IMG/VR virus record: IMGVR_UViG_3300045988_134806
Coordinates: 1 to 64,000 of that record
Reading direction: 5' to 3' (one strand)
Length of the DNA stretch: 64,000 nucleotides
Origin: a virus
Part shown: one piece after another, positions 681 to 60,769 of the stretch
How positions within the stretch are numbered: position 1 is the first letter of the stretch
Layout of the letters: each line of letters begins with the position of its first letter
Translations under genes and position numbers: made by a program
The notes under the pieces: model-generated
Told to the model about the DNA's origin: nothing
Database searches by the model: none
What the model saw: only the letters and a program-made list of their open reading frames with translations

Positions 681-681
681 A

Positions 682-1350: not shown

Positions 1351-1358
1351 TCTAAAAA

Positions 1359-1376: not shown

Positions 1377-1395
1377 CTTATCAGGAGATAAAAAT

Positions 1396-1803: not shown

Positions 1804-1813
1804 GAGGTGAGAA

Positions 1814-2188: not shown

Positions 2189-2189
2189 G

Positions 2190-3899: not shown

Positions 3900-4072
3900 A
3901 GTTTTCTCCTGTAACTAACTACTATCTTAACAAATCGTTACATAGGACTTTCCCGAGGGTGATCCCCTTAATAAGGCTATTTTTATCGTTTTCCCTATGC
4001 TCGTGCATACGTTACCTCAATACTTGAGACTAAATAATTTCAGGCCGATAAAATTATTGATTATCTGCAAGG

Positions 4073-12700: not shown

Positions 12701-15700
12701 AAAGCAGAAGCCAAAACGGAAGAACCGAAGAAAGCTAAATTCGGAGAAGCTCTGAAAAAGGCCTTTGACGAAGCGAAAGAGAAAGCTAAAACGGAAGGGG
12801 AAAGCAAACCCATAGAGCTTAAATCGGCCCCGAAATCTCCCAAAGATCCGTTTAAAGGGACTGAGGAGAACAAGGCTACTGTCTCTGCCGTGGAAGGAAA
12901 AGAAAAAGATGCCAAGGCAGTTGCTAAGGCAGAGATGAAGGTGCGCTCAATTCTTGAGAGCATGCAGGATTACTTAGACGGGAAGAGAAAGAAGAGACTC
13001 TCGGAAAACCAAGTAGACCTTGTCAATGAACTTAAAGACAAGGGCTTCCTGTTTGTAGACGACGAAAAGGTCCTTGACGACTATAAGAAGCGTATTGAAA
13101 CCAAATTTGGAAAATCAACACGCCATGCCTCAAAGTCTGCAAAGACTGATCCTGAAACATCCCGAATTAGAGGGCTCCAAAGACTCCAAGAAGCCTTGGA
13201 AAATAGGACATCCGCACATCGGGCGATGTGGAGTAAACCGATCAGTATGTGGAGCCCGTCTTTGAACGGATGGGTTGATTTTGACTATGGGAGACTTGGA
13301 AGCATTATCGACGAAAACTTCACCACAAAAGGAGCTATGGGTGTTTCCCATATTGTCGATAAGAGAAGTTTAGCTCAAGGATTAAATCCTGCCGAAGTGG
13401 CCTTAGTCTTAAGAGAGATGGTTAACACTGTAGCTTATGGAGAACAGGTTAAGGCACATGAAAAAGCAGTACTCTTAAAGAGTGACAAGTTCAAGGTTGT
13501 TCTTTCGAAGAGCGGAGGAAACTCGTATGTAATTACGGGTTTCGGTAAGATAAACAAAGGGGAAGCTGTGTCCTCCGGCACGTCAGACACAGTTTATTCC
13601 GCTCAAGCCAATTTGGACGCCCATGGCAAGAGCATACCCCCGATCCTAGAGAGAGAAAAGAACCTTTCTAGGATCGTAAAAATTATCGCAGACCAAAAGC
13701 TTCTTTTCAAGGGTGACGAGCTCAAAGCACGCAAAGCTTCCAAGAGTTCTCTGACCGAAAAACAGAAGAAGCAGAACTACAACGATGTCCGAAACGGCCT
13801 GAATAAGTCGTGGGGCGTTTCAACGACTAAAGAGCTGCTGGACTCCGGAAAGGTGGTGATCTGTGATTCCAACGAAGGGTTCATTGACACTATCGTCAAA
13901 GATTACCTTGCCAAGGACCCGAACTTGTCAGAGGAAGAAGTCAGAAACACTCTCCACGAAGAAGGTCTTGACAAAGGAACGAACGCTATTTACGACGAGA
14001 ACACAGGGAAGGTCTACATCAACGGCGAAAACGTTGATGAAAATGAGGCAGGCTCGGTACTTGCACATGAAATCGGTGTACACGCTGCTAAAGACTCTGA
14101 GTTCAAGGGGCTTGTCAAAGACATCGAAGACCGTGTCGCGACTTTGATGGCAGAAGGATTAAAGAGCAAGAACCCTGCGGTAAAGAAGTTTTGGGAAGAT
14201 GTTAAACGCCGGATGGATGACGCCGATGTTTCTGACAACGAAGAAAGACTTGCCTACTTCTTGGAAGTCTACGTTAAACGAAACGGCGTTATCCCTCAGT
14301 CCATCCAGTCTGAAATGTATCAGGCCATCGGCCAACTTAAGGACTGGCTTCTTAAGTTCCTTGGTATTAAGAGCATCAATGAGCACAAGGCAGCCGAGCT
14401 TCTATGTGACGTAGTGAGAGCTTACGCCGATCAGAGCGCTATGGAGAAGGGCGGCGGTCGTCATGCTTCCAAGAAAGGTAAAAACGATAAAAGCGACAAA
14501 CCCAAGAAACCCCGCAAGCAGCTCACACCCGAAGAAAAGGAAAAGAAAGAGAAGGAAAAGCTTGCCAAGATGACACCGTCGCAGAGGGCAAGTTATGAGC
14601 GGCGAAAAAAGATCGCCGATCTTAAGAAGGAAGTACAGAAGCAGAAAGACTTTAGAGAAGGCGAAGCCTACAGAGATCAAAAAGCTCAAGAGGAGGACAT
14701 GAAGGACTTCAATGACCTCCAAGGTGGGAAGCCTATTGTTGAGGTTGTCAAAAGCCGAAGTGAAAGAGCTTCCGGCATGGAAAAGCAGGCGTATGCAATC
14801 GGCGAAAAAGTTCTCGCTTATCTTAAACGGGCGGCTACATACTTAAACTTTAGATTCCTTAAGTTCACCAATGAGCTCGTAAACGATATCGGTGAAAGAT
14901 GCCCCGCTGCCAAGGTCTGGTATAACGAACTGTTGGAATGGGGCAAGGACCGTCAGAAGTACAGAGCAGAAGCTCAAGAGATTTTCTCTCGTTTTGACAA
15001 GTTCCCTAAGAACGTAAAAGACGAAGTTGAAAGCCTTCTCTTTGACAGCACCACGTCAGGGCAGTGGGCCTTCGATATTTCTGACTGGAAAGATGCTAAG
15101 GGCAATAACCTCACAGCAGAAAAATATTCCATCAATCCAGAACTTGAGGCTCGCTTCGATGAGCTGGCTAAAAATAATCCGCAGGCAGCGATGGTTGTCT
15201 ATGACACACTGAAACACGGCTACGATCGTTTCATCCAAATCAAGACCAAGATCGACACTGTCGGCAAAGCTGTCTTCGGAGATAAGTATCGTTCGCTGAT
15301 TAAGATGCCAAAGAGCGTCATGCCCTACGTACCCTTGGTTCGTACAGGTCAATACAATGTTGTGTGGCGGAGCCATCAGCTCAAGGCCGAGTACTTGATG
15401 CTGGATAAGCTCAAAGCAGAACGTGATGCATACGAAGAAAAGAAACAGGATATACCTAGCGCGCTAACCAATGCGATTAAGAACACTGAAAGCAAGATTG
15501 ATGCAATGGAACGCAACGAGAACCATTATGTCGTGTCTCGTTTCGACAGCCTCGCCAAGGCGATTGACTTCCAGTCGGAACTTAACGGCCGACAGCGTGA
15601 CAACCAAGCCACGCTGACAGATGTCGGCGATCAACAGAAGAAGTCTCTGACCGGTCAGGCCAACATCGACCGCATGCTCTCTGACTTTGAAGAGAAGTTC

Positions 15701-17677
15701 GAAGAGCACTATGGCAAAGGCATGGGGGTCGCCATGCGTCAGACTGTCCAAGAAATGCTCTTGGAAAGCGCGCAAAAGACCCTGCACTCTGCCACCAAGC
15801 AGAGAAGAAACATTGCCGGTGCCAACCCGCACGTCATGGAAACATTCATGCACCACGCCAATACGGATGCTTGGATGCTCTCCAACCTTGACCATGGCAA
15901 GAAAATATCCAATGCCTTCACAACCCTTTATAAAGAAGTAGAAGCGTTCCGCAACAGTCCGAAAACTGAGGACCAAAAGGAAGCAACGGAGCTAAGTGAC
16001 ATCTATAACGAACTTGCTCGTCGTTACAACTTCATTACCAAACGAGAAGATCACGGTCTGACAGATGACGTAGTCGAAGGGGTTCGGGCATTTAACACGT
16101 TCAGTATGCTGTCCCTGAAACCTGCATACTATATTCAGAACGCTCTCCAGCCGACCATGATGACAATGCCTTATCTATCGGGCGAGTTCGGTGTCGGCCA
16201 AACCATGGCTCAGATGAAGCACTCTTACGGAGAATGGCTGGGCTTTGTGAAAAAGACTTGGGGCACAGCAGAAACCAAAAGAGAAAAATACCACGCCATC
16301 AGCAACATTATGGATGCCATTCAGGGTTCCAAGCTTCCTGAAGACATAAAGGAAATGCTTCTTGATATGGAGCGCCTGAATCTTCTTGACTTAGGTGCTC
16401 AGGCCGACTTTGGAAGCTTCCGTGGAAACAACGCGCTTCTAAAAATGGCGAACAAAGGCATGACCGAACTCGGGTACCTAGCCCGAAGCGTAGAACTTGC
16501 CAACCGTTATGTGACTGCCACAGCGGCTTACCGCATGATGAAGACCAAGCTGTTAAGCCAAAAGGCAACAAAAGAAGAAGCGGAAGCCGGTGCCAAAGAA
16601 TATGCTGCCAAGGTTTTAAGTAAAACTCAAGGCGACTACTCAGGAATCAATGCACCAAGTGCTTTCAACACGAAGTGGGGCAAGGTTGCGTTGCAGTTTA
16701 GAAAGTTCCAAGCCATCCAACTTAATTACTTCCTCGATATGGCCAAAGGAAGTTTTAAGGGTATGACCAAAGACGAAAGAGGCGTGTACCAAAAACAGCT
16801 CACCGTTGCTATCGCAACTCACTTGGTTATGGCAGGTATGAATGGGGCTCCGGCTATGGCGATCGGCTACATGCTTGCAGGAGCGTTATTCGGAGATGAC
16901 GGAGAAGATGGGGAAGATACCGTTCGCAGACTCTTAAGTGAAGCAGGTTGGAGCGGTGACATGATTGACATTGCAATGGAAGGGCCGTTAAGCGCCATCG
17001 GTATCAACCTCTCCAACTCGGTCGGAGCAGGCCAGATGTTCTCTCCGGTTCCTTACACCCGCAAGGGCCTTACGGAAGAAGGTGGAATGATGGAGTTCCT
17101 GACATCCGCATTCGGGGGTGCTACGGCAAGCCGACTGATAAGACTTCACACAGGCGCAGTCCAAAGCAAAGAAAGCAACAACTGGGGAAGACCCTTCTGG
17201 GAGGCTGCTCTTCCGGCAGGAATCCCTCAAATGCTCAAAGCCGCCCACATCATAGATCCCACAGTGGACAAGAGGACTGGTGCCAAGATGCTTAAGGACG
17301 AAGACTTCACAGTTTGGCATAGCTTTGTACAGGCCCTTGGCTTTACACCGAGCCCCGTGGAAAGAATGTATCAGATGAGAAACGTCGCTTATAAGACTCA
17401 GAAGGCAATCAAGGAAGAAAAGGGCGATCTAACGCGCCGTTGGATTGACGCCATGAAGAACCGAGATTACAAGGCGCAGTCGGAAATCCGAAAAGAGCTG
17501 CCTGAGCTTAATCGAAAGAGAAGAGCCAAGGGGTTCAAGCCTGTGACCATGAACGACCTGATGACTGCTTGGAAGACGCGCCAGAAGGAAGAAAAACTCA
17601 TGCAGAAGAATCATGGGCTCAAACTTCCGAACAGCCAGCAGGGGTTTGCCAAGCAGCTCAACAAAATTTACAATTAG
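9719..17677 (+). CDS. giant multidomain protein (2652 aa) with zincin HExxH motif; polyvalent/ejected virion protein candidate
   Basis: Uninterrupted 7.96-kb ORF. HEIGVH at nt 14066-14083. Glu/Lys-rich low-complexity region at about 12.2-13.0 kb. Gly/Ala-rich hydrophobic segments at both ends. Confidence 0.9.
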   Translation: MQDDDWKVIDRDPGTISYNYEPTKQQNADGSLFSTDAFRDTAISLGKGLSSLGTGVVDALALGASQGYNALNAELYEKAGLEAPKKYSMNAELRKSGVMNPEAINSWWNDKYSEGTKQALQNVSEAEGFWDTLVAYAQNPRAVMASIAESAPAMLPVFGTAGKAYKAAEAAGLAKGLAGKELENYIKRRVMVASGAAEGAVSSAAASQAIGQDNLENSRDYSEGQGWALPIGVTTGVVGQLNPMEANIMTKGLVKGVLMKEAIKTGQPVSMLKSTGGALGRAGMSAVKEGGEEVAQGVFETGFTNLGQKKEFMDDQGKSAAENFVVGGAMGVGMHPFTNGGFHKGSAEQAINNGSPTQQVQEQSQQAIPLLPYDRPLGADGRGGVMVGPGSDSPSPRMRLNPEEQSQVTQATTDAQNPNAQVQQPVETQQPTMSPEEAELAQMEAEESARRQAVIDKYGLEFNREHGTAFADVTRNITDEAEKDFHAKILQAAGMMGIKNPFKEKEAAANFATEYRTFGGDLAKLAEFYRNIGIKAENDAGKKQGALRQAEFYQQLADLLEGGELLNFEQRRARKEEKKAAQAAEIQAAQVQQTAEQMMAQEPAPVEAQPEVKTQPKPEAPKLSGVIPSEEEMSDMQYDKTRQYRGEVAAVMSRLEKEGKITPEQKEKVFGLFNRNPKKYKVLDNYKAAMHALKDIENPQPPKEAKSTRKTLTKEAEETWLAQGKLTPEARQILGYTDAEADQLESINKLFTTKEVPAHAKQVNKLNSLIMHGDSRGAKQLAELMTKRAEALHVKEYIESEEMQGSDVDKFNSLVAEERYQEALTMAYKPFSEGGLELSREEINSIDPSRLKKEGEAINKGTEEEGEGQSAGEDLEKSEENSNEGSVEDIGRVEAEQNGESGSDTIGVAARAKGGTEKAGRAMAAKHSKTVAKKEEDRSKGTVKITKGEDVKEKLEVIPPKEKGKVDFSKKLENTDKSRTEETKAVEEADKAAAKAEAKTEEPKKAKFGEALKKAFDEAKEKAKTEGESKPIELKSAPKSPKDPFKGTEENKATVSAVEGKEKDAKAVAKAEMKVRSILESMQDYLDGKRKKRLSENQVDLVNELKDKGFLFVDDEKVLDDYKKRIETKFGKSTRHASKSAKTDPETSRIRGLQRLQEALENRTSAHRAMWSKPISMWSPSLNGWVDFDYGRLGSIIDENFTTKGAMGVSHIVDKRSLAQGLNPAEVALVLREMVNTVAYGEQVKAHEKAVLLKSDKFKVVLSKSGGNSYVITGFGKINKGEAVSSGTSDTVYSAQANLDAHGKSIPPILEREKNLSRIVKIIADQKLLFKGDELKARKASKSSLTEKQKKQNYNDVRNGLNKSWGVSTTKELLDSGKVVICDSNEGFIDTIVKDYLAKDPNLSEEEVRNTLHEEGLDKGTNAIYDENTGKVYINGENVDENEAGSVLAHEIGVHAAKDSEFKGLVKDIEDRVATLMAEGLKSKNPAVKKFWEDVKRRMDDADVSDNEERLAYFLEVYVKRNGVIPQSIQSEMYQAIGQLKDWLLKFLGIKSINEHKAAELLCDVVRAYADQSAMEKGGGRHASKKGKNDKSDKPKKPRKQLTPEEKEKKEKEKLAKMTPSQRASYERRKKIADLKKEVQKQKDFREGEAYRDQKAQEEDMKDFNDLQGGKPIVEVVKSRSERASGMEKQAYAIGEKVLAYLKRAATYLNFRFLKFTNELVNDIGERCPAAKVWYNELLEWGKDRQKYRAEAQEIFSRFDKFPKNVKDEVESLLFDSTTSGQWAFDISDWKDAKGNNLTAEKYSINPELEARFDELAKNNPQAAMVVYDTLKHGYDRFIQIKTKIDTVGKAVFGDKYRSLIKMPKSVMPYVPLVRTGQYNVVWRSHQLKAEYLMLDKLKAERDAYEEKKQDIPSALTNAIKNTESKIDAMERNENHYVVSRFDSLAKAIDFQSELNGRQRDNQATLTDVGDQQKKSLTGQANIDRMLSDFEEKFEEHYGKGMGVAMRQTVQEMLLESAQKTLHSATKQRRNIAGANPHVMETFMHHANTDAWMLSNLDHGKKISNAFTTLYKEVEAFRNSPKTEDQKEATELSDIYNELARRYNFITKREDHGLTDDVVEGVRAFNTFSMLSLKPAYYIQNALQPTMMTMPYLSGEFGVGQTMAQMKHSYGEWLGFVKKTWGTAETKREKYHAISNIMDAIQGSKLPEDIKEMLLDMERLNLLDLGAQADFGSFRGNNALLKMANKGMTELGYLARSVELANRYVTATAAYRMMKTKLLSQKATKEEAEAGAKEYAAKVLSKTQGDYSGINAPSAFNTKWGKVALQFRKFQAIQLNYFLDMAKGSFKGMTKDERGVYQKQLTVAIATHLVMAGMNGAPAMAIGYMLAGALFGDDGEDGEDTVRRLLSEAGWSGDMIDIAMEGPLSAIGINLSNSVGAGQMFSPVPYTRKGLTEEGGMMEFLTSAFGGATASRLIRLHTGAVQSKESNNWGRPFWEAALPAGIPQMLKAAHIIDPTVDKRTGAKMLKDEDFTVWHSFVQALGFTPSPVERMYQMRNVAYKTQKAIKEEKGDLTRRWIDAMKNRDYKAQSEIRKELPELNRKRRAKGFKPVTMNDLMTAWKTRQKEEKLMQKNHGLKLPNSQQGFAKQLNKIYN

Positions 17678-17756: not shown

Positions 17757-18033
17757 TCTGGTACACAAAGTGGTACCCATAAAAAATAAATAATTTAATT
17801 ATCAATAGGTTGCTATTAAAATCGGCGACCACCTCTTCCGCCATTTTTATGTCCGCAAAGAACCTCTCTGAACCTCTCAGAGCTTTTTAAATTCATAAAA
17901 TCAAATAGTTATCTAGATTCACCCATTTGCGTTTGGACCTCTGTGAACCTCCATGAATGGCCCATAAACATCAAATGGTCGGTACACATGGTGGTACACT
18001 TTCCCAAAATTTCTTACTTTGTGTACCACAATC
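17757..18033. promoter_or_regulatory. attP-like region with repeated GGTACAC and GAACCTC motifs (candidate integrase arm sites / int regulatory region)
   Basis: GGTACAC or its complement at about 17761, 17981, 17992 and 18021, plus GGTACCC at 17772. GAACCTC(T) occurs twice at 17859-17881 and again near 17945. AT-rich, non-coding, directly upstream of int. Confidence 0.5.
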
Positions 18034-19173
18034 ATGGCAAAGCTCCGTACCACCGACGTTCTCAAACTTCCCGACGGCTTCCACGCCGACGAAAACGGAC
18101 TGTACTTATATGTGCGTGGAAACTCCCGCACTTGGGTCTATCGAGGGACCGTAAGAGGAAAGAGAGTTAAACGAGGTTTAGGTTCTGCCAAACTCATTTC
18201 TCTTGCTCAAGCGCGCCAAAAGGCTTTGGAGTTCAAACAAGCCGGAGTTCAGGAAACGGTAAAGAGCGTAAAGTTCCAAGACTTCTATTTAGACGCCGTG
18301 GAACACGCAGCCAAACTGAAGCAGTGGAAAAACAAAAAGTCAAAGTCTCAGTGGATCAGTACGATTAAAACCTACGCGCTCCCCGTGATCGGAGCCAAGT
18401 CGGTTAAGTCGGTCACTTCCGAGGACATCCGCAAGATCATCGACCCCATTTATGAAACCAAGACGGAAACCGCTTCTCGGCTGGTCGGAAGACTAAAGAA
18501 TGTTTTCGACTATGCGCAAGTCTGCGGACTGCATCAGGGGCCTAACCCTGCAATGTGGGTCGGAAACCTCGATCAGTTCTTTGCCCCGAAAGCAAAAGTG
18601 GCCCCGGTCAAGCACCACAAGTCGCTATCTTGGAGGGAGCTGCCGGTTGTGTTTAAGGCTCTTTGGGAAACCGGAGGAGTTGGAGCCCTGTCCGTTATGT
18701 TCGGGGCGCTTACTGCTTCCAGAGTAAATGAATTTGTGCCTGCTCAGTGGAGCGAGATAGACATAGAAAATAAGGTGTGGACGATGCCCGCCGGGCGAAG
18801 GAAAGACCAGAAGCTCTTTCCTCACAGAGTGCCGTTAAACGACAAAACTTTAATGGTTCTCGACAGGCTGCCGACGAGAGAAGGGAATATGTTCCCCGCA
18901 TGGAGCGGGCCGAAGCATCAAAATAAGGAAACACCTCGGAAGACACTACATGACTTGGGGCTCGATGTGACGATGCACGGGATGCGCTCCACGTTCAGAG
19001 ACTGGGCGGCAGAGACCGGGCAGGATTACGCGGCAAGTGAGAAGGCGCTTTCTCATGCAGTGGGGACTGAAGTGACCCAAGCCTACCTTAGAACAGATAT
19101 GCTCGAGAAGCGCCGAGGGATTATGCAGGCTTGGGCCGACTGGTGTTTCAGTGAAATTTCAAAGAGCAGCTAA
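18034..19173 (+). CDS. int: tyrosine integrase (P4-like, with N-terminal arm-binding domain)
   Basis: N-terminus LPDGFHADENGLYLYVRGNSRTWVYRG is a DUF4102-type arm-binding domain. Catalytic region has HGMRSTFRDWAAE and AYLRTD (Tyr). ATG at 18034 is preferred over the track TTG at 18019. Confidence 0.9.
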   Translation: MAKLRTTDVLKLPDGFHADENGLYLYVRGNSRTWVYRGTVRGKRVKRGLGSAKLISLAQARQKALEFKQAGVQETVKSVKFQDFYLDAVEHAAKLKQWKNKKSKSQWISTIKTYALPVIGAKSVKSVTSEDIRKIIDPIYETKTETASRLVGRLKNVFDYAQVCGLHQGPNPAMWVGNLDQFFAPKAKVAPVKHHKSLSWRELPVVFKALWETGGVGALSVMFGALTASRVNEFVPAQWSEIDIENKVWTMPAGRRKDQKLFPHRVPLNDKTLMVLDRLPTREGNMFPAWSGPKHQNKETPRKTLHDLGLDVTMHGMRSTFRDWAAETGQDYAASEKALSHAVGTEVTQAYLRTDMLEKRRGIMQAWADWCFSEISKSS

Positions 19174-33120: not shown

Positions 33121-35874
33121 CTATTTTGCTTCTCCGTATGACTTTCCGATACCACCTTCACAATCCACTGGGAGATCAGGCGCCCAAGCGGGACGAACTC
33201 TCATCATCTCTTCCATCATTGCCTTGGTTTCCTCAGCTTCTTCTTCAGGTACGACTACTACGACTTCGTCGTGTACGGTAAGTACAACTTGTCGGATCTT
33301 GCCATTGGAGTTTCCTCCTTTCTCCTTGAGCTTCTGGGCTATCCGGCCCATCTGCCAAAAGACCACTTCTCTCGCTAATGCTTGGATGATGTTCTCGCAG
33401 TTATGGACGATTAACGGCTTCCCGTCTGATCCTTGGACGACGTACCTGTGTCGGCGTCCGCAGTTTGTAATGTCGAAAACCTCCGACTCAAATCCGGTGG
33501 GTCTGCCAAGTGCTCTAAGGGCACTCCGTTCTTGATCCTGTAGTGAACTGTTGTTACTCCCAAGCCATGCTTTCTGGCAAACTCCGCTATTGTCAGGTCG
33601 CCGATCCTTACATTGTTGCGTTTGTTGTTTGCCTGTTTCCGCATCGTAATCCAACGACAATTCGATGGCTCGTAGTTCCCATTCACGTCTATACGGTCCA
33701 GCGAAAGCCCAGCCTTGTAAGTCGGACCCATATCCGCATAGAAGTTCTCGAACTTTTCCAGCCACCTTTCGCAGACCTTGATCCCACGTCCTCCGTAGTT
33801 TTTCCAAGCCTGAGCATTGGGGTCCGTACATCTTTGCTTCATTGAGTGCCAGACATTCCATATTGGCGTTGCTGCCATGCCATGCCTTGTTAAGGCCTTG
33901 GAAAAATGCTCTCTGTGTTTGCATCCACAGCTTGGAAGGTAGCCGGCTCTTACTTGACTCTTTAGCTCGTGTGAATCCCTTAATACCTCTTTCCCACATT
34001 CGCATCTGTATTTCCAGTAGCTGTGATGCTTTCTGATGTGAGAGAAGCTCAAAGCCGTTAGGTAACCGAACTTCTGCCCGGTCAAATCTTTCCGCGGTTT
34101 CCCCGGTGCGCCAGCCGTCATTTGTTAGCACCTTATGATCCTTTGTCATTGAAACTCCGAATACTTCAATGACTTGTTTTTTTCCGTTAAAAGCAACTCC
34201 GGTGTGCTTAACCCATTCAACACCGTCCCATACCTTGTCAGTGAGTTCAACATCCTGAATAGGAATCCATCCTCTGGAAGTTAGGACGGGTGTGTCCTTT
34301 GCTATGCAAAGCTTTCCGCCGTAGATCTTTGTCCTAAAGTTCTTCCTCCTATAAGAGTAGCCTTTCTCTTCTTTGTCGTTAGCTTCTGCGCGGTAGCGAA
34401 GCTCAGGGTAGAGCAGATAAGTACCGTTAGGAAGCCAAATCTTTCCGGGCTCGTACTTGAGCTTGACGCCTTCTCCAAACTCGCCGCTGTAGCCTGCAAC
34501 CATATTGGAAAGAACGTCACTACATGTCTGCCACATGGACTTAATGGCATAATTTGAGCTCCTATAGATGTCAACAATTCGTTGGCATTCTGCATCACTC
34601 ATTATAACGTTTCCGTTCTTCAATGCAGATTGAAGTTTTCTCCAACCCACCTGATAACCTAATCCAAGCGTAGCGGTTTTTCCGACGAATCTTTCAAGCT
34701 TATCAGCCTTCGTAATTTTCCGTCCGTAGATCTTAGAAGCCAGTTCGCAATACACATCGTTCCCTTCGGCAAAATGCTTAACTAGGTCTAATTGACCGCT
34801 AAACCAAGCATTAACCCTCCCTTCAATGTTGCTCGAGTCGCAGGCGCAGATCATGTGCTTAGGCGGAGCAATCAGCGACTTCCTTATTTCTCCTCCGCGG
34901 GGGAGATTTTGAAGATTTAATTTGTCACCCCCTGAAGCTCTTCCTGTTGACCCTCCCCAATAATTAAGTAGTATAGGTAAGGGTCCCCGATTAGCCACCC
35001 CTATGAGACTTTCCGTTCTTGTCTCTTCAATCGTGCTCTTAGTCCCGAGGCGTGCTGCTGCCACGGCCTGCACACGTTCGTCCGGGTGCTCCAAGAGTTC
35101 CTTAAAGCCGTCGTCCGTCTTAGCAAACGCAAACGTTTCCTTACCAGTAGTAGGGCTCACCTTCATGGGAGGCGTAACTCCAAGGCTTTTCAGAACCTCA
35201 GCGAAGAGGTTGTTGCTCATCAGCTGATCCTTCGTGAAAGGGATTCGGGAGAGAAGCTCTTGTTTCTTCGCTCTTACGTCAGCTAGGTGGGCTTCGAGCC
35301 TCGGCTTGTCCAAGACGATCTTTGGCTCCGTGAACATCCGCAGCATCATGTCGATGATGACAAGCTCGCCTTTGGTCGTGTATGGGAGCAGTTTCTTAAA
35401 GAGGTGGTACGTAAGGTTCACGTCCTGCCTGCAATAAACACCGAAGGCATCGAGCTCCGACCTCGTGAAGTCTTTCTTGCGTTTGCCCAGCGTGTTGTAG
35501 ATCTCCGTGCCTTTCTCGCCCAAGCCGAACAGCTTGGAAAGCGCTCGCAACGAACTTCCCACTGTAAGCCCAGTGAGAGGGCGGGCCATGCTCAATGTGT
35601 CGAGCAGAAACTTCGGATGGATGTCGTAGATCCACGAAAGAATCGCGCCATCAAATGCAGTGTTGTGGCAGAGGACTTGGTGATCCTCCAAGTGAAGAGC
35701 CTTAAGCTCTTCGCCTATGTTCTCCGTGATCCATCTGATGCCTCCTGAATCAATCTTCACCGAGACACCGATTACCTCAAATCTGGGATCTCTTATGTAG
35801 GATTCTGTGGTCATCTTTGAAAGACTAAAGTCTTTGCTATAGAAAGTCTCAAAGTCCAAAACGACTAGCGACAT
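33121..35874 (-). CDS. family A DNA polymerase with 3'-5' exonuclease domain, interrupted by a 303-aa intein
   Basis: Exo motifs VLDFETF, HNTAFDGAIL, YCRQDV. Pol motif A CACDSSNIEGRV, motif B RFVGKTATLGLGYQVG, motif C LTVHDEVVVV. The intein lies between KIYGGKL and CENIIQALARE. Confidence 0.9.
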   Translation of the reverse strand: MSLVVLDFETFYSKDFSLSKMTTESYIRDPRFEVIGVSVKIDSGGIRWITENIGEELKALHLEDHQVLCHNTAFDGAILSWIYDIHPKFLLDTLSMARPLTGLTVGSSLRALSKLFGLGEKGTEIYNTLGKRKKDFTRSELDAFGVYCRQDVNLTYHLFKKLLPYTTKGELVIIDMMLRMFTEPKIVLDKPRLEAHLADVRAKKQELLSRIPFTKDQLMSNNLFAEVLKSLGVTPPMKVSPTTGKETFAFAKTDDGFKELLEHPDERVQAVAAARLGTKSTIEETRTESLIGVANRGPLPILLNYWGGSTGRASGGDKLNLQNLPRGGEIRKSLIAPPKHMICACDSSNIEGRVNAWFSGQLDLVKHFAEGNDVYCELASKIYGRKITKADKLERFVGKTATLGLGYQVGWRKLQSALKNGNVIMSDAECQRIVDIYRSSNYAIKSMWQTCSDVLSNMVAGYSGEFGEGVKLKYEPGKIWLPNGTYLLYPELRYRAEANDKEEKGYSYRRKNFRTKIYGGKLCIAKDTPVLTSRGWIPIQDVELTDKVWDGVEWVKHTGVAFNGKKQVIEVFGVSMTKDHKVLTNDGWRTGETAERFDRAEVRLPNGFELLSHQKASQLLEIQMRMWERGIKGFTRAKESSKSRLPSKLWMQTQRAFFQGLNKAWHGSNANMECLALNEAKMYGPQCSGLEKLRRTWDQGLRKVAGKVRELLCGYGSDLQGWAFAGPYRREWELRAIELSLDYDAETGKQQTQQCKDRRPDNSGVCQKAWLGSNNSSLQDQERSALRALGRPTGFESEVFDITNCGRRHRYVVQGSDGKPLIVHNCENIIQALAREVVFWQMGRIAQKLKEKGGNSNGKIRQVVLTVHDEVVVVVPEEEAEETKAMMEEMMRVRPAWAPDLPVDCEGGIGKSYGEAK
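33400..34308 (-). mobile_element. intein in PolA (Cys1 ... His-Asn / Cys+1)
   Basis: Block A CIAKDTPVLT, block B MTKDHKVLTNDGW, blocks F/G EVFDITN..HRYVVQGSDGKPLIVHN followed by C. Length is 909 nt, in frame with the polymerase. Confidence 0.85.
33411..34121 (-). CDS. homing-endonuclease-like ORF nested inside the intein in a different reading frame
   Basis: 236 aa, frame-shifted by 1 nt relative to the pol/intein frame. Shares the motifs of ORF 30544..31269 (PSCGC, NYGGRGIKVCERW, SLDRIDVNGNYEPSNCRWIT, HTH). AAGGTG lies 8 nt upstream of its ATG. Confidence 0.75.
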   Translation of the reverse strand: MTAGAPGKPRKDLTGQKFGYLTALSFSHIRKHHSYWKYRCECGKEVLRDSHELKSQVRAGYLPSCGCKHREHFSKALTRHGMAATPIWNVWHSMKQRCTDPNAQAWKNYGGRGIKVCERWLEKFENFYADMGPTYKAGLSLDRIDVNGNYEPSNCRWITMRKQANNKRNNVRIGDLTIAEFARKHGLGVTTVHYRIKNGVPLEHLADPPDLSRRFSTLQTADADTGTSSKDQTGSR

Positions 35875-56658: not shown

Positions 56659-57284
56659 CACCTGTGGATAAGTTTTTACCCTTTGTTCTGCCCTATGCCG
56701 ACAGTGTTCCGCTGCCTGTGGCAAAAGTGGCGATTGCAAAGGCTGCCAGTCAGTTTTGTACTCAGTCTCTGCTTTGGCAGGAAGAATACCCGGAGGTGAA
56801 AGTCCACCCCGGAAAGTTCGTTGAAATTCCTGTTCCTAAATCAGCTATGGTGGTGAAGGTGATGTCTGTGGCCTACAACGGATATCGGCTCACCTCAACC
56901 TCTCGGGATGAGCTTAATTCTACAAACGTGATCGACTATCGCCTCTTTGACGGGCCTCCGAAGTTCTTCTTTCAAGCGGATTTAAACGTTTTAAGACTCG
57001 TTCCCGAACCGGTTAAACACGGTGTTTTATCCATCGTGGTAGCTCTGGCTCCGACGCCTGAGTCAACCGAGGTGCCAAGCAGCCTCTATACGCGCTTCTG
57101 GGAAGCGATTGCAAACGGGGCCTTAGCGGATATCAAGCAGATTCAAGGACAGTCCTACAGCGATCCTAATGCGGCTCTGGCCTATAAGACGCTCTTTCAG
57201 CAGGGTGTTAGAGAAGCGAAAAATGAAGCGGTAAGGAGTTTGGGAAGAACGGTCGGAAGAGTTGCATATCAGAGGGTTGTATGA
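56655..57284 (+). CDS. virion structural protein (209 aa)
   Basis: Translationally coupled (4-nt overlaps) with both neighbours in the structural operon. Confidence 0.5.
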   Translation: MTPVDKFLPFVLPYADSVPLPVAKVAIAKAASQFCTQSLLWQEEYPEVKVHPGKFVEIPVPKSAMVVKVMSVAYNGYRLTSTSRDELNSTNVIDYRLFDGPPKFFFQADLNVLRLVPEPVKHGVLSIVVALAPTPESTEVPSSLYTRFWEAIANGALADIKQIQGQSYSDPNAALAYKTLFQQGVREAKNEAVRSLGRTVGRVAYQRVV

Positions 57285-58561
57285 CAGTAAAAATTACAAA
57301 CAATGCGTGGGGAACACTCGCCGTCGGTGTAAACGACTCCGACACAACGCTGCTCCTTGGTACAGCCCAAGGGGATCGTTTCCCGACATTACCGGCGAAT
57401 AATGCTTTGAAGCCGGTTGACTGCTTCTACGTCACGTTAATCGATGAGTCTACGAATGAAGTTGAAATCGTTCGTGTGATTGAGAGAAACGTTGATGTTC
57501 TATCAGTGGTTCGTTCTCAGGACGGGTCGCGTAGAAAGCAGTTCCTAGCGGGCTCTCGTGTAGAGCTTAGACCGGTTGCTGCTCTTTTTAATTCAAAGAA
57601 AGACGCAGTCGAGGCCGCTGAGGATAAACAGGAAATTCTTGACAAAATTGGCTTATTAGAACGAGAAGCTAAAGAAGGGATTGAGAATGCAGTTCAGAAA
57701 GGTGAGCAGAATTTAACCGACGGGGAACAGGCGCAAGCCCGCGAAAACATCGGTGCGATGTCTTTAGATACAGACGAAGAAGCCAACGGGTCTAAAACTT
57801 GGTTAAAACCGCAGTTTCACAAGAACAATGTTGTTTTGTTGCAGCGAAGCGAAGATAAAAACAGCTTCGCACTCATCGGCCGCATGGCAGAAAACGACGC
57901 TTGGATTATTCGCGGCATTGCAGAAAACATTCAGAACGGCGCTAATAATACTTGGACGACTACTGACAACGGAGCCTTGGAGTTGGCGACCGCAGACAAC
58001 GGCACAGAGCCTATCTACGTTACGCAGTATTCCGGCGGAAAAATTCCGGATTTAGATCAGGTAAGTATCGAAGGCTGGGATGGTTGTTTTGGAGAAGTCT
58101 TACATAGGGCTGTGATTTTGGACCGTTCCGGCAACACTTTTTTTCCAGGAGTTGTTTATGGTTCTAGCTTTCAAGCTACGTCCGACAGAAGACTTAAGTT
58201 CGGTTTTGAAGAGGTTGCTAAAGAGTCTGTGCTGGACGCAATAACACCATACCGTTATGGCCGCTTGGATAAGCATCCTAAAGAACGTTTTATCGGGGTT
58301 ATTGCTCAAGACGTACAAGAGGTTATCCCAGAAGCTGTGAGAGAAGACGGTAATGGGTATTTGAGCGTTGACTATGCCGCGCTTACAGCTGTGCTGTGGG
58401 GCGAAGTCAAACGATTGAAAAACGAAATTAAGGAGATCAAAGATGGCATGCGGAAAGAAACCTTGCAAACCGAGCAAAAAGACGCCCTCCAAGAAGCCGT
58501 GCAAGAAGTGCTAGTTAAACCTGCTAAGCAGGTTTGTTCAGGACGACAAACTAAGAGGTAG
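57281..58561 (+). CDS. tail fibre/spike with C-terminal intramolecular chaperone (peptidase S74) domain
   Basis: N-terminal fibre domain (GDRFPTL..EIVRVIERNVDVLSVVRSQDGS). Fibre repeat LTDGEQAQARENIGA. S74 signature SDRRLKF..IGVIAQDVQEVIPEAV..YLSVDYAALTAVLWGEVKRL starts at nt 58181. Confidence 0.85.
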   Translation: MTVKITNNAWGTLAVGVNDSDTTLLLGTAQGDRFPTLPANNALKPVDCFYVTLIDESTNEVEIVRVIERNVDVLSVVRSQDGSRRKQFLAGSRVELRPVAALFNSKKDAVEAAEDKQEILDKIGLLEREAKEGIENAVQKGEQNLTDGEQAQARENIGAMSLDTDEEANGSKTWLKPQFHKNNVVLLQRSEDKNSFALIGRMAENDAWIIRGIAENIQNGANNTWTTTDNGALELATADNGTEPIYVTQYSGGKIPDLDQVSIEGWDGCFGEVLHRAVILDRSGNTFFPGVVYGSSFQATSDRRLKFGFEEVAKESVLDAITPYRYGRLDKHPKERFIGVIAQDVQEVIPEAVREDGNGYLSVDYAALTAVLWGEVKRLKNEIKEIKDGMRKETLQTEQKDALQEAVQEVLVKPAKQVCSGRQTKR

Positions 58562-58563
58562 AG

Positions 58564-58845
58564 ATGGCATATAGCAAAACGGACTACCGGCTTTCCGACG
58601 GTACAGATTTGATCGAGCTTTTTAAAAACCCGAATTTAAGCGGCTTAACTCAGTCGATTCAGAACGTTATGAGAGTTGGTGCTCAAACGTTCTCTGTCAC
58701 GAAAGACCGTTTAACAGTCTCGGCAAGCAGAGATGATTTTGGCAGGCTTATCGGAGTGAATCTTGATTACAAGTGTCCTGATTGTGCGGATTATCCGTGC
58801 AGCGACTCAGGGGATAGTTGCTGTAACGAATGCGATGCGGGCTAG
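58564..58845 (+). CDS. small protein (93 aa) with six-Cys acidic C-terminus; candidate radical-SAM substrate
   Basis: C-terminal KCPDCADYPCSDSGDSCCNECDAG (nt 58765-58842). Lies 18 nt upstream of the rSAM/SPASM gene. Confidence 0.6.
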   Translation: MAYSKTDYRLSDGTDLIELFKNPNLSGLTQSIQNVMRVGAQTFSVTKDRLTVSASRDDFGRLIGVNLDYKCPDCADYPCSDSGDSCCNECDAG

Positions 58846-58863
58846 GAACAACGGAGATTTTTA

Positions 58864-60030
58864 ATGAAAACAGACTTCGGAAGAATCTATGTGATGATGG
58901 GTACAGCTTGCAACTTTAATTGTGTGTACTGTTCCCAATCGACTTCTCAGCAGGGTATTCAAAAGACAGAGTGCCGTCCTCACATATCTAAGCGTCCAAG
59001 CAAAGAGTTCTTAGACTACATGAAGCGCTACGGCGAGGCTCTCGATGTAACTAACTTAAAGCGAAAGCCCACCATTGCCTTCTGGGGCGGGGAGCCTTTG
59101 CTTTATTTCGATACTATCAAGCAGATTATCGATGTGCTTGGAGAAAATGTCTCTAAGTTCCGTCTTGGGACAGTCACTAATGGAGAGATGATTACTGATG
59201 AGATGGTTGATTTCTTCAACAAAAACCATGTAGTGGTCAACCTTTCTCACGACGGCCCTAAGACAGTTGTTACACGCGGAAAAGACGTGCTGAAGAGCTC
59301 GGTCATTAGAGATCGCTTCCATGCTTTGAACTCTGTGACGTTCCATACGGTTATCAGCGGCGTGACACAGGATCTCTACAGGAACTGGGACTATTTTGCT
59401 GAGATGGGTTTTCCTGAGAATGAGAATACTTCTTATATGCAGATGATGGTGTACCCGTATGACGGTATCCCGGACTATCTGCTCAAGTTCGATCTTGCTA
59501 AATGGGAAGAGACCCTTCAGAAAGTCGTGGCTTCGCTCTACAAGTCTTTCTTGGAAAACAACGGTGAAGTCAATGTCAGAAGCAAAGAATTTCAGGTGAT
59601 TACACATCAGCTTGGAAGTCTTTATCGCTCTAACTATGAACATTTCAAGGCTACGGGCGAAGTCCATTATTGCCAGACAGCGACGAAGATGCTGGCAGTG
59701 GATGTGCAAGGTAAGACTTATTTCTGTCACAACTCCAGCAAAGAAATCCTGCCTGTTTACGACCCAAATTTTGACAGCCTTTATGCGGGCCTCGCAGAAG
59801 ACATGGTTTGCAAAACCATGAAGGACAGTCGAGATTATTGCAGGGATTGTGAATACGGTTATTTCTGTACAACGTCTTGTCCGCTCCCGCATGATAAAAG
59901 CAAAGCTCAAACGCTTTGTGGCGCTGTTAAGTTGCTTTGCGAATACGTTCGTAGGTATTTCCATTTAACGGAAGCATACAGAGGGAATATCGTTCTTCCC
60001 GACTCTATTAAGGTGCCTAGACATGCCTAA
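58864..60030 (+). CDS. radical SAM enzyme with SPASM auxiliary Fe-S domain
   Basis: CNFNCVYC (CX3CX2C, nt 58909-58932), GGEPLL, and C-terminal YCQ..GKTYFC plus CRDCEYGYFCTTSC (CX2CX5CX3C). Confidence 0.85.
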   Translation: MKTDFGRIYVMMGTACNFNCVYCSQSTSQQGIQKTECRPHISKRPSKEFLDYMKRYGEALDVTNLKRKPTIAFWGGEPLLYFDTIKQIIDVLGENVSKFRLGTVTNGEMITDEMVDFFNKNHVVVNLSHDGPKTVVTRGKDVLKSSVIRDRFHALNSVTFHTVISGVTQDLYRNWDYFAEMGFPENENTSYMQMMVYPYDGIPDYLLKFDLAKWEETLQKVVASLYKSFLENNGEVNVRSKEFQVITHQLGSLYRSNYEHFKATGEVHYCQTATKMLAVDVQGKTYFCHNSSKEILPVYDPNFDSLYAGLAEDMVCKTMKDSRDYCRDCEYGYFCTTSCPLPHDKSKAQTLCGAVKLLCEYVRRYFHLTEAYRGNIVLPDSIKVPRHA

Positions 60031-60769
60031 TTTTGTCTGCTATCGGTCGCCTACAAGCGCCCAGAAACGAAAGGAAACTGGTAATCCTGATCGAATTATG
60101 AGGAAACCGGGATTTGATCTTGTGCTTTTTCCGACAGAAAAAGGAATCAGGATTGATTACAAAGTTCTGATGATGGAAAAGCTGTTGATGGCCGAGGGCA
60201 GCAAAGAAGTAGAGCCGGAAGTCGGTGTTCTTTATTCCGTCGATTATTCTCTTTCAACTAAAGACGCATTTGTTAGAGAAAGTTCTTTCGGGAGTATTTC
60301 CGAAGTTAGCAACGCTCCGAAGATCAACATTGCTGCGATTCTTAAGCTTTCGGACGGAACAGTGTTAGTCAAGATCTCGAACATGATTTCTATTTCCTGC
60401 AACTCTAATGAATTTGGATGTGCGGAAGAAAAAATCGTTGAGGCAGGAACGCGGCCCTTCACCTGTTTTAGCAGCTATAACGAAGAAGCGGCCGAGCTTA
60501 TGCACGCCAGCCAAGCCAAAAAGAGCGCCTTGGTAGATATCAATTTTTTGGATTCGCTGTCTTATCTGGAAGCTCAGGTAGATATCTTGACGAAGGTTGT
60601 TTTGGCGGGCGGACTAGCAGATAAAGACGAGCTTAAGGAAGTGCTCATTAGGGCAGATGCTGAAGGTATTTGGCGCTCTAACAGCAAGGAAAAACTTCTA
60701 AAGAAGATGGATAAGAAACGCAAGTTCAGAGAGCTCCAACTAACCTACTACGAAGCTAATAAAAAATGA
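60023..60769 (+). CDS. hypothetical protein (248 aa), third gene of the rSAM cassette
   Basis: Overlaps the rSAM gene by 8 nt and the next gene by 4 nt. No motif. The true start could be an internal Met. Confidence 0.5.
   Translation: MPNFVCYRSPTSAQKRKETGNPDRIMRKPGFDLVLFPTEKGIRIDYKVLMMEKLLMAEGSKEVEPEVGVLYSVDYSLSTKDAFVRESSFGSISEVSNAPKINIAAILKLSDGTVLVKISNMISISCNSNEFGCAEEKIVEAGTRPFTCFSSYNEEAAELMHASQAKKSALVDINFLDSLSYLEAQVDILTKVVLAGGLADKDELKEVLIRADAEGIWRSNSKEKLLKKMDKKRKFRELQLTYYEANKK

Follow-up and report, generated by a model that had tools for sequence, protein, structure and literature searches.

Several radical-SAM (rSAM) enzymes of the SPASM subfamily install thioether cross-links in Cys-rich peptides or proteins. 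QhpD acts in the cytoplasm on a small (~100-aa) Cys- and acid-rich protein, the gamma subunit QhpC of quinohemoprotein amine dehydrogenase, which becomes a structural subunit of a larger assembly and not a natural product. It makes three Cys-Asp/Glu thioethers, which replace disulfides, and a partner protein, QhpG, stimulates cross-linking (PMC7876137). In the ranthipeptide systems PapB/PapA (freyrasin) and CteB/CteA (SCIFF), SPASM maturases form Cys S to C-beta or C-gamma thioethers with Asp, Asn or Glu acceptors in Cys- and Asp-rich C-terminal cores, and PapB makes six Cys-Asp thioethers (PMC8172795). CcpM, next to CLI_3235-type Cys-rich peptides (TIGR04068/TIGR04065), belongs to a clostridial, chromosomal system annotated as a bacteriocin. 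Phage tail fibres, for their part, carry self-processing C-terminal modules, the Peptidase_S74 intramolecular chaperone and Hint domains. We describe here a locus, within the tail-fibre genes of a gut phage, that combines an rSAM/SPASM enzyme, a small Cys-tailed protein and a third, conserved protein. Literature searches found no published description of such a system.

Gene content and sequence features of the locus

The locus lies in a 64,000-nt stretch of viral DNA (IMG/VR record IMGVR_UViG_3300045988_134806), hereafter the window. The original prediction described an rSAM/SPASM gene preceded by a 93-aa ORF with six Cys near its end and followed by a 248-aa ORF without motif, and this observation was confirmed in every detail (Table 1). 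The AT-rich tract that it noted by eye is also real, but it includes the tail-fibre gene as well as the cassette. The genes are packed with gaps or overlaps of 18 nt or less, without internal signals.

Table 1. Features of the locus (positions in the window; residues numbered within each protein)
Coordinates	Strand	Feature	Observations
57250-60750		Low-GC tract	GC 0.44-0.46, versus 0.50-0.56 in the flanks
57281-58561	+	Tail-fibre gene (426 aa), C-terminal Peptidase_S74 intramolecular chaperone domain	Pfam PF13884 at 2.3e-10; many tail-fibre PHROGs
58564-58845	+	93-aa Cys-tailed protein, putative substrate	dN/dS 0.077 at dS 1.7; residues 37-63 match the C-terminal tip of a tail fibre
58591-58632	+	N-terminal motif LSDGTDLIELFKNP (aa 10-23), tentatively a docking or recognition element	Invariant in the family alignment; a similar ASGTDLANIF lies upstream of the Cys tail in L123; the related GTYxLxxLLxxL motif is enriched upstream of Cys tails
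58771-58842	+	Cys/Asp-rich C-terminal tail KCPDCADYPCSDSGDSCCNECDAG (aa 70-93), predicted site of modification	Six Cys in the last 23 residues; C74, C79, C86, C87 and C90 conserved across the family, C71 not conserved
58864-60030	+	rSAM/SPASM enzyme (388 aa), no N-terminal RRE domain	Starts 18 nt downstream of the 93-aa ORF; GGEPLL at residues 75-80
58909-58932	+	CX3CX2C rSAM cluster motif, CNFNCVYC (C16, C20, C23)	Invariant in 20 homologues
59671-59919	+	SPASM region: C270-X12-G283-X4-C288 (YCQ...GKTYFC), C326-X2-C329-X5-C335-X3-C339 (CRDCEYGYFCTTSC), C352; seven Cys for two predicted auxiliary [4Fe-4S] clusters	All seven Cys and G283 invariant in 20 homologues
60023-60769	+	248-aa putative accessory protein	Overlaps the rSAM gene 3' end by 8 nt and the start of the 622-aa ORF by 4 nt
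		622-aa ORF downstream	phrog_511 at 4.8e-130

The enzyme scored 48.8 bits with the Pfam Radical_SAM model PF04055, above the cut-off of 29.5 (E 1.1e-12). All ten Cys of the rSAM and SPASM motifs are invariant in an alignment of 20 relatives at 18-74% identity. No hit to the Pfam SPASM model PF13186 was found at E ≤ 0.1, but a full-length profile alignment to the SPASM enzymes CteB and anSME covers the C-terminal domain. Among the NCBIfam families, the nearest were PapB, CcpM, QhpD, nif11 and SCIFF maturases, and the enzyme fell far below the cut-off of every curated family. In a profile search of the PDB, the best hit was CteB (5WGG, 6e-33), aligned from chain residue 96, i.e. without its first ~95 residues. 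The enzyme family is also clearly related to anSME (1e-22). The second-closest structure was a cyclopropylglycine synthase (8VPO), so that SPASM chemistry cannot be read from similarity. Robust clustering with non-peptide rSAM families had been named beforehand as a result that would refute the prediction; this is not the case, as the best matches are peptide- and protein-modifying SPASM maturases and not small-molecule families.

The 93-aa ORF is a real gene, as indicated by its dN/dS against the relative L001 (L numbers designate the loci compared in this work). No other genuine ORF of the window has such a tail. An exhaustive HMMER search over 1.84 billion representatives found only its own cluster plus one spurious repeat protein: the family is tiny. 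Its AF2 model is unreliable (pLDDT 50), with an N-terminus predicted to be disordered. The 248-aa protein gave a better model (AF2 pLDDT 76.5), with a predicted beta-rich N-domain and a helical C-terminal part carrying the conserved motif DS.sYLEAQVD.LT...K...R..Q..YY. It had no PDB sequence hit, no Pfam hit, no PDB fold hit with E below 0.001, and only weak BFVD hits to uncharacterised phage proteins. Neither this protein nor the enzyme had a PqqD or RRE Pfam hit, and the idea that the 248-aa protein is an RRE or PqqD-like domain is not supported.

Conservation of the cassette and Cys-rich tails in other phages

Megablast of the region found nothing in GenBank phages or in complete E. coli genomes. 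In all relatives found, however, the order fibre, 91-93 aa, rSAM, 247-248 aa, 622 aa is kept, and the small Cys-tailed gene stays next to the enzyme down to 56% peptide identity. As an IMG/VR scan with the 622-aa protein found no close relatives, the only comparison with a phage lacking the cassette is with the distant cultured relative GP4, where the same slot holds only tail-fibre genes. The phage is temperate (it has an integrase), and its likely host is Parasutterella: a 99% identical copy lies in a MAG of this strict anaerobe, which suits an oxygen-labile enzyme. We asked whether the fibre and the small gene are always exchanged as one unit. This is not the case, since in L098 the fibre is 98-100% identical but the small gene is the other allele. 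The small gene is therefore its own mosaic segment.

Relatives of the enzyme were found in at least 312 viral contigs of IMG/VR and in 340 genome stretches, and the family occurs in many prophages. Among 88 other loci, 60 have a Cys-rich Asx/Gln/Ser/Gly tail within 3 kb of the enzyme, whereas about a quarter of the loci show no Cys-rich neighbour. Overall, 109 such tails lie within 2 kb of an rSAM gene, against 4 in the remaining 458 kb. The filter used (a C-terminal stretch with at least 4 Cys in 30 residues, rich in D/N/Q/S/G, within 3 kb of a homologous rSAM/SPASM gene) is passed by the window tail, whose composition matches that of the 63 distinct tails from other loci (C 27%, D 12%, N 11%). 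Of these 63, 45 are on proteins under 150 aa, which could be free peptides. The Cys-rich proteins match no curated NCBIfam or Pfam family. The Cys-to-acceptor spacing differs between the window (C-x-D) and other tails (CNCDC), so no common ring pattern can be derived.

The same kind of tail is also often the C-terminus of real tail-fibre proteins of 350-670 aa. In L008/L009, a T7-type fibre ends with NCNCDCNCDCH and is followed directly by three rSAM genes. In Achromobacter phage JWF, the gp36-like fibre gp028 carries NCNCDCNCNCS followed by a Hint domain, then come gp029, a homologue of the 248-aa protein, and the rSAM gp030. L017 and L077 hit tail-fibre PHROGs, and in L027 the module lies between Dit/Tal and the endolysin. 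In L051, the tip of a fibre-like protein matches the window's 93-aa protein outside the Cys tail: residues 37-63 align to fibre residues 318-344 (BLASTP, 41% identity, 70% positives, E 3e-5; jackhmmer 1.5e-17), although this rests on a single bridging sequence. In total, the three components recur beside tail fibres in at least five unrelated phage architectures.

A helix motif, GTYxLxxLLxxL, often with HxH, is enriched 20-29 aa upstream of Cys tails (20 of 103, versus about 0.5 expected). The window protein has only a looser GTDLIELF motif, about 50 aa upstream of the Cys stretch, and no His at all; a similar GTDLANIF lies upstream of the Cys tail in L123.

The 248-aa protein was found next to the enzyme in 13 further diverse loci, including cultured phage JWF. 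A second type of neighbour, the 275-296-aa proteins of L007, L008, RP31 (ORF071) and RSP15, was suspected to belong to this family, but hhalign rejected the relationship (probability 0.05%). The 276-aa neighbour in RSP15 resembled an Asp/Asn hydroxylase by eye; it has no Pfam hit, and this idea was dropped.

A model for the cassette, and alternative readings

We propose that the three genes form a protein-maturation cassette belonging to the tail-fibre apparatus. Late in infection, the 93-aa protein would be made unmodified, in the same operon as the fibre. Its upstream part would dock on the enzyme, the invariant N-terminal motif being the likely contact, possibly held by the 248-aa partner, which would stand in for the missing RRE domain. 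The enzyme would cleave SAM reductively at its CX3CX2C cluster, and the 5'-deoxyadenosyl radical would abstract a hydrogen from a side-chain (or alpha) carbon of an Asp, Asn or Glu in the C-terminal tail. A neighbouring Cys thiolate, probably bound to an auxiliary SPASM cluster, would then capture the radical and form a thioether. Repeated for the five or six Cys, this would give a compact cross-linked knot, insensitive to redox conditions. The matured protein would serve as a virion-associated fibre-tip or accessory subunit, the free-standing counterpart of the tip fused to the fibre in many other phages, and would stabilise or form the distal receptor-contacting end.

We hold this model with moderate confidence only. 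Gene content, motifs and coding status, conserved synteny, the co-occurrence of enzyme, tail and accessory protein across unrelated phages, the fusion of the tail to real fibres and the similarity to protein- and peptide-modifying SPASM enzymes are established by the present data. That the 93-aa protein is the substrate, that two auxiliary clusters are bound, that thioethers are formed, what the 248-aa protein does and that the product enters the virion are all inferred from sequence, without direct evidence for any modification. The only available virion proteome of a carrier, RP31, detected neither the small protein, its neighbours nor the enzymes; that survey covered 32 gel bands, and RP31 carries a Cys-less variant. 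The central inference of the original prediction, a precursor, its maturase and possibly an accessory protein, is supported. Of the two products it considered, the evidence favours a cross-linked fibre or virion component over a peptide released at lysis, because the same tail is fused to real tail fibres elsewhere. It needs correction where it viewed the cassette as cargo, as the genes sit in the variable tail-fibre slot and are present in all relatives found.

A phage-encoded RiPP is the strongest alternative, though we consider it unlikely. Here the 93-aa protein would be a leader-plus-core precursor of a ranthipeptide- or sactipeptide-like product, released at lysis or from lysogens and acting as a signal, a bacteriocin or a superinfection-exclusion factor. 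The precursor-next-to-maturase layout and the best family hits (PapB, CcpM, SCIFF) are typical of RiPP clusters, the N-terminus is invariant and predicted to be disordered, like a leader, the small gene is a diversity hotspot of its own, as RiPP cores often are, most tails are on small ORFs, and the phage is temperate. In addition, a small L007 protein has a sub-threshold match to the CLI_3235 bacteriocin precursor family (TIGR04065, 0.0066). However, no leader peptidase, exporter, immunity gene or RRE was found in the cassette, whose neighbours are a tail fibre and virion proteins, and the peptide has no double-glycine or signal sequence. The genes lie inside the late structural operon, and tails on 350-670-aa fibres cannot be diffusible peptides.

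It is somewhat less likely still that the tail is mainly a metal- or iron-sulfur-binding tip, like the HxH iron sites of T4 gp37 or the zinc sites of PAAR spikes, the enzyme performing other chemistry on it or on another target (Cys-to-formylglycine oxidation as in anSME, carbon-carbon cross-links, or modification of the fibre itself). The window tail contains CxxC pairs (C71-C74, C87-C90). Ten proteins carry the GTY helix motif upstream of the Cys stretch, several of them (for example L007, L008, L013, L017, L024) with an HxH motif in between, and RP31 ORF070 and a small L007 ORF have the HxH motifs but no Cys, so that the common denominator across putative substrates is not cysteine. The relationship to anSME and to the cyclopropylglycine synthase also leaves room for other chemistry. 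On the other hand, C71 is not conserved, so the zinc-ribbon pattern is lost in relatives, the window protein has no His, and its tail has no C/S-x-P/A-x-R sulfatase motif, none of the six Cys having Arg at +4. The enrichment of Asp, Asn and Gln next to Cys fits the known thioether acceptors, and metal binding alone does not explain one to four dedicated rSAM genes next to each tail. Finally, a moron (for example an anti-defence or metabolic rSAM) merely lodged in an insertion-prone fibre region would fit the lower GC content, the mosaicism among relatives and a weak NCBIfam hit to prokaryotic viperin over the rSAM core only, but is very unlikely given the recurrence of the three components beside tail fibres, the fusion of the tail to fibres, the presence of the cassette in all relatives found and the full-length match to SPASM protein and peptide maturases.

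A broader reading is possible, but remains tentative: phages of many lineages would use dedicated rSAM/SPASM enzymes, one to four per phage, to cross-link covalently, in the host cytoplasm, the Cys/Asx/Gln-rich distal tips of tail-fibre or receptor-binding proteins, whether fused to the fibre, exposed by Hint self-cleavage or free-standing as in the window. Such staples would not depend on oxygen or redox state and would replace disulfides, which cannot form in anoxic habitats. This would be the first radical-enzyme post-translational modification of a virion structural protein, and a new layer of host-range and stability determinants. Tail fibres decide which bacteria a phage can infect and are the main target of phage engineering. 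If their tips are so cross-linked, fibres from such phages, which are common in gut anaerobes including Parasutterella, Sutterella, Negativicutes and Bacteroidales, may not fold or function when expressed without the enzyme, which affects heterologous expression, host-range swapping and structure prediction. It would also extend rSAM/SPASM "RiPP" chemistry from diffusible peptides to large virion proteins, and offers a rationale for how viruses of anaerobes obtain disulfide-like stability without oxygen. The loci provide hundreds of new candidate enzyme-substrate pairs, with compact CNCDC and CQxCQx cores, for biocatalytic peptide stapling, and suggest functions to look for in two widespread protein families of unknown function, the 248-aa accessory and the CQ-repeat proteins.

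Comparison with described maturation systems

QhpD/QhpC is so far the main protein-level precedent. As in that system, enzyme and putative substrate are encoded together, the putative substrate is a small Cys- and acid-rich protein, and a third protein is present; QhpD (TIGR03906) is among the top three family hits (3.6e-17). However, the score is far below the family cut-off (62.2 versus 453 bits), the enzyme is ~80-100 residues shorter at the N-terminus, and there is no CTQ cofactor, no QhpE protease and no QhpF exporter. The 248-aa partner is unrelated to the flavoprotein QhpG, and no qhp genes (QhpA/B/C/E/F/G) are present, the context being a phage structural module.

With the ranthipeptide systems, the locus shares six Cys in a short acidic tail. 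PapB (NF047865) is the best NCBIfam hit (1.7e-20, nearly full length) and CteB the best PDB hit, but the scores are below cut-off (73.5 versus 340 bits for PapB, 54.1 versus 425 for the SCIFF maturase, TIGR03974), and the enzyme is therefore not a member of these families. The 93-aa protein matches no SCIFF or PapA model, nor any other NCBIfam family. CteB's N-terminal RRE is absent, there is no C-x3-D periodicity, and homologous tails are fused to large tail-fibre proteins. The enzyme is not an anSME member either (TIGR03942, 47.8 versus 349 bits). CcpM, the second-best NCBIfam hit (1.2e-17), resembles the locus by a short Cys-rich C-terminal core next to an rSAM/SPASM maturase, but this hit and that of the small L007 protein to TIGR04065 are below cut-off, and the window protein itself has no hit.

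Lastly, Peptidase_S74 and Hint domains are, like the proposed cassette, dedicated maturation devices encoded at or next to the distal end of fibre proteins. The window fibre carries S74, and in JWF, L010, L033, L102 and L134 the Cys stretch is followed directly by a Hint domain, which would leave the Cys stretch as the new C-terminus. Those modules are autoproteolytic folding aids, requiring neither a separate enzyme nor radical chemistry, whereas here a trans-acting rSAM enzyme, predicted to act on the tip, is added.

The cassette and its enzyme

Every element of the original prediction was recovered from the sequence: a radical-SAM enzyme with SPASM-type cysteines, a small Cys-tailed ORF just upstream, a 248-aa ORF overlapping the 3′ end of the enzyme gene, and a tail-fibre context. 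The 93-aa ORF ends KCPDCADYPCSDSGDSCCNECDAG, and the 388-aa ORF starts 18 nt later. The latter has CNFNCVYC (C16/C20/C23), GGEPLL (residues 75-80), YCQ-X12-G-X4-C (C270...C288), CRDCEYGYFCTTSC (C326/329/335/339) and a further Cys at 352. The 248-aa ORF overlaps the enzyme gene by 8 nt, and the next gene, encoding a 622-aa protein that matches phrog_511, by 4 nt. The upstream gene is a tail fibre with a Peptidase_S74 intramolecular chaperone. The tract had been described as AT-richer than its neighbours, and this is the case (GC 0.44-0.46, versus 0.50-0.56 in the flanks), but the dip includes the fibre gene. No promoter- or terminator-like signals beyond chance were found inside the cassette on the + strand. 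The cassette is part of one tightly packed late operon. The small ORF is a real gene: compared with a relative at 82% amino-acid identity, dN/dS is 0.077 at dS 1.7. In contrast, an antisense ORF lying entirely inside the rSAM gene is most likely a by-product of the composition of the coding strand, and not a gene. Coordinates are collected in the table below.

Coordinates of the features discussed in the text
Sequence	Coordinates	Strand	Feature
Window	9719-17677		DarB-like antirestriction protein, 2652 aa
Window	18019-19170		Integrase (phrog_1, 1.4e-42)
Window	33121-35874	-	DNA polymerase ORF, 916 aa
Window	about 57250-60750		Low-GC tract
Window	58400-58860		Diversity hotspot (small gene and end of fibre gene)
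Window	58564-58845		93-aa Cys-tailed ORF
Window	58864-60030		Radical-SAM/SPASM enzyme, 388 aa
Window	59056-59964	-	Antisense ORF, 302 aa
Window	59300-59450		Divergent patch inside the rSAM gene
Window	60023-60769		248-aa ORF
L007 (jumbo-phage-like contig)	7273-7458		Small Cys-less ORF
L007	9938-10828		Second type of accessory protein
L008 (locus with T7-type fibre)	11076-11903		Second type of accessory protein
L010	678-1439		Cys stretch followed by Hint domain
L027 (Gram-positive-type siphophage)	7088-7821		Pair of CQ-repeat proteins (example)
L033	3337-4194		Cys stretch followed by Hint domain
L051 (locus with JWF-like fibre)	81-1562		NrdD-like and NrdG-like genes
L093 (Achromobacter phage JWF)	3655-5106		gp028, Cys stretch followed by Hint domain
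L094	4125-4940		Second type of accessory protein
L102 (Sutterella)	3333-4058		Cys stretch followed by Hint domain
L134 (Halomonas)	1696-2916		Cys stretch followed by Hint domain
L181 (Ralstonia phage RP31)	2376-2753		ORF070, small Cys-less ORF
L181	3034-3921		Second type of accessory protein

The enzyme scores above threshold with the Pfam Radical_SAM model. In an alignment of 20 relatives at 18-74% identity, the three rSAM Cys, GGEP and all seven SPASM Cys are invariant, meaning that the enzyme has the sequence requirements for three [4Fe-4S] clusters. The best matches among curated families are all peptide or protein maturases, namely PapB (1.7e-20, almost full length), CcpM, QhpD, nif11, HxsB and SCIFF, but every score is far below the family cut-off. 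Among solved structures, a family profile detected CteB (5WGG, 6e-33), the rSAM cyclopropylglycine synthase 8VPO (1.2e-32) and anSME (1e-22). The alignments begin at residue ~96-107 of CteB and 8VPO, whereas the cluster motif of the phage enzyme starts at residue 16; the phage enzyme therefore lacks the N-terminal RRE domain. We conclude that it belongs to a new, phage-associated SPASM clade, whose chemistry cannot be assigned from similarity alone.

Conservation in the phage group

The phage is temperate, with an integrase, a DarB-like protein, its own DNA polymerase and helicase, and an SU10-type portal and adaptors, and is related in architecture to the Ralstonia GP4 and Stx-phage type podoviruses. 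An internal segment of the DNA polymerase (aa ~521-592) matches endonuclease PHROGs, and may be an inserted homing endonuclease or intein-like element. A 99% identical rSAM gene lies in a MAG of Parasutterella sp., a strictly anaerobic gut betaproteobacterium.

All relatives recovered through any of the three proteins keep the order fibre(S74), 91-93 aa, rSAM 388 aa, 247-248 aa, 622 aa, down to 56% peptide identity. In the small protein, five Cys (C74, C79, C86, C87, C90) and residues 1-23 are conserved, while the middle varies. Among nine close relatives (L001-L005 and L096-L099), the rSAM gene, the 248-aa gene and most of the 622-aa gene are 97-100% identical in DNA, whereas the small gene, together with the last ~150 nt of the fibre gene, is only 71-86% identical in all nine. 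This includes one relative, L098, whose fibre body is 98-100% identical to that of the window but whose small gene does not match. The small gene is therefore a mosaic hotspot of its own. The allele of the window (P0042) is the rare one, with 3 contigs against at least 23 for the other allele (P0043). In addition, a short patch inside the otherwise ~99% identical rSAM gene is only 88% identical in all nine close relatives, which may reflect a small gene-conversion tract specific to the window's copy. In the distantly related cultured phage GP4, the slot between the adaptors and the 622-aa homologue holds only tail-fibre genes. The cassette occupies the variable fibre slot.

Cys-rich tails beside homologous enzymes and in tail fibres

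To see how general this arrangement is, relatives of the enzyme were sought more widely, and the family was found to be encoded in 312 IMG/VR stretches and 340 stretches of bacterial genomes. In the loci retrieved, ORFs ending in a stretch with at least 4 Cys in 30 residues, rich in D/N/Q/S/G, are concentrated beside the enzyme genes: 109 lie within 2 kb, against 4 in the remaining 458 kb, and 60 of 88 non-window loci have one within 3 kb. A further few have the stretch internally, and about a quarter of the loci show no Cys-rich neighbour. Over 63 distinct tails, Cys makes up 27% of residues (background 1.7%), and the residues that follow Cys are mostly Q, N, D, S and G. Typical endings are ...CNCNCDCSDDS and ...GDDGG. 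In gut siphophage or prophage loci of Negativicutes (Acidaminococcus, Megasphaera; L014-L065 and L103/L104), pairs of ~100-135-aa proteins sit just downstream of an rSAM gene and carry long period-3 CQxCQxCQ repeats, up to about 12 units, with a terminal CNCDCSDDS or GDDGG tail. No curated family covers them.

In several loci, the tail is the C-terminus of a real tail-fibre protein. A T7-type fibre (PF03906, loci L008/L009) ends ...GTYNIATILQQLINESHQHTYSNGKTTVSNCNCDCNCDCH and is followed directly by three rSAM paralogues and then the lysis genes. Achromobacter phage JWF gp028 is a gp36-like fibre with ...KPRQNCNCDCNCNCS joined to a Hint domain, followed by gp029, the rSAM gp030 and the endolysin. 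L051 has a fibre with a JWF-like N-terminus and fibre repeats ending ...RTFRVSAGGYTITAKRDAYGRLLDLGFAKSDCNCDCNCNCDCGDSDSDGA, after which come three rSAM genes, an accessory gene and lysis genes. Directly upstream of this fibre and rSAM cluster lie an anaerobic ribonucleotide reductase (NrdD-like) and its activase (NrdG-like), assigned only by eye from the translations, which is consistent with an anaerobic host lifestyle for that phage. The proteins of two other loci, L017 and L077, match tail-fibre PHROGs. In the siphophage L027, the module lies between Dit/Tal and the endolysin, and the contig L007 has four rSAM genes among fibre genes, with two small Cys-tailed ORFs.

The Hint (intein-like) domain placed directly after the Cys stretch in JWF gp028 recurs in L010, L033, L102 and L134 (for example ...NCNCDCNCNCS followed by CFPAGTMVLMADG). 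Self-cleavage there would leave the Cys stretch as the new C-terminus of the fibre protein. A GTYxLxxLLxxL helix, often followed by HxH, was found 20-29 residues upstream of the Cys stretch in 20 of 103 distinct putative substrates, against about 0.5 expected. The small ORFs of RP31 (ORF070) and L007 (7273-7458), upstream of rSAM clusters, carry the amphipathic helix plus HxH motif (...WIQHTHNYYD..., ...AIRSHTHYSPDGSY; ...ILEKLIQYSHYHSS) but have no Cys at all. Part of the enzyme family may target other residues.

We next asked where the proteins of the window fit. Residues 37-63 of the 93-aa protein (RVGAQTFSVTKDRLTVSASRDDFGRLI) align with the tip of the L051 fibre (KIQARTFRVSAGGYTITAKRDAYGRLL), in a region lying outside the Cys stretch (E 3e-5; jackhmmer 1.5e-17). 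The window protein therefore looks like a free-standing version of a fibre tip. Its invariant SDGTDLIELF resembles ASGTDLANIF, upstream of the Cys tail in a 347-aa Magnetospirillum prophage protein, but it matches the canonical GTY helix only loosely, and this resemblance is tentative.

The 248-aa protein belongs to a family found next to the rSAM in 13 further loci, including JWF gp029 and a Sutterella prophage, with a conserved C-terminal motif DS.sYLEAQVD.LT...K...R..Q..YY. Its AF2 model (pLDDT 76.5) has a confident beta-rich N-domain and long C-terminal helices. Searches by sequence and by fold gave no significant match in PDB, none in Pfam, and only weak matches to uncharacterised phage proteins. 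It is a conserved partner, not a recognisable RRE. A second conserved accessory protein (271-296 aa, C-terminal ...YLENG..RF.PL.YEG...) accompanies multi-rSAM loci that lack the 248-aa type (L007, L008, L094 and L181). It is unrelated to the 248-aa family by hhalign, and has no Pfam hit.

Interpretation and relation to known maturation systems

The reading of these genes as a precursor, a maturase and an accessory is supported by the comparison of loci, and of the two products first proposed, a peptide released at lysis or a cross-linked fibre or virion component, the second is favoured. The gene content, motifs, conserved order, concentration of tails beside the enzymes and fusion of tails to fibres were observed directly in the sequences, while occupancy of the three clusters, modification of the 93-aa protein, the thioether chemistry, the role of the 248-aa protein and the location in the virion are inferred. 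We are fairly confident that the enzyme and the 93-aa protein are a maturase-substrate pair, whereas the full model, a thioether-type cross-linking of a virion-associated fibre-tip protein, is about as likely as not.

The best-supported model is protein maturation of the QhpD/QhpC kind. In that system, an rSAM/SPASM enzyme installs several Cys-to-Asp/Glu thioethers in a ~100-aa acidic, Cys-rich protein that becomes a structural subunit; a third protein helps, and everything happens in the cytoplasm (PMC7876137). PapB does the same on a peptide, making six Cys-Asp bonds (PMC8172795). The abundance of Asp, Asn and Gln beside Cys in the tails fits the known acceptor residues, although the spacing of Cys and acceptors is not uniform, some putative substrates lack Cys, and the nearest structures include an enzyme with unrelated chemistry. 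As a functional rationale, which is our inference, phage proteins fold in a reducing cytoplasm and many of these hosts live without oxygen: disulfides are therefore unavailable, while thioethers are redox-inert.

The alternative, a released RiPP, is less well supported. The fusion of the tail to fibres, the operon position, and the absence of a peptidase, exporter, RRE or signal sequence all argue for a virion component instead, although this location rests on sequence alone. The virion proteome of RP31 lists neither the neighbours nor the enzymes, but it covered only 32 gel bands and a Cys-less variant.

Literature searches, curated family libraries and annotated phage records gave no description of rSAM enzymes acting on tail fibres. 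In cultured carriers, the genes are annotated only as "radical SAM domain-containing protein", "anaerobic sulfatase-maturating enzyme" or hypothetical. Only five cultured phages carry the enzyme (JWF, 2-1, RSP15, RP12 and RP31), which probably explains why it has been overlooked.

Compared with known systems, the proposed mode of action is like that of QhpD/QhpC and like ranthipeptide maturation. The system is however a member of none of the curated families, as all cut-offs are missed, and there is no RRE, no SCIFF or PapA-type precursor and no sulfatase motif. A SPASM maturase with a Cys-rich substrate is already known; what would be new here is the biological role, together with the partners.
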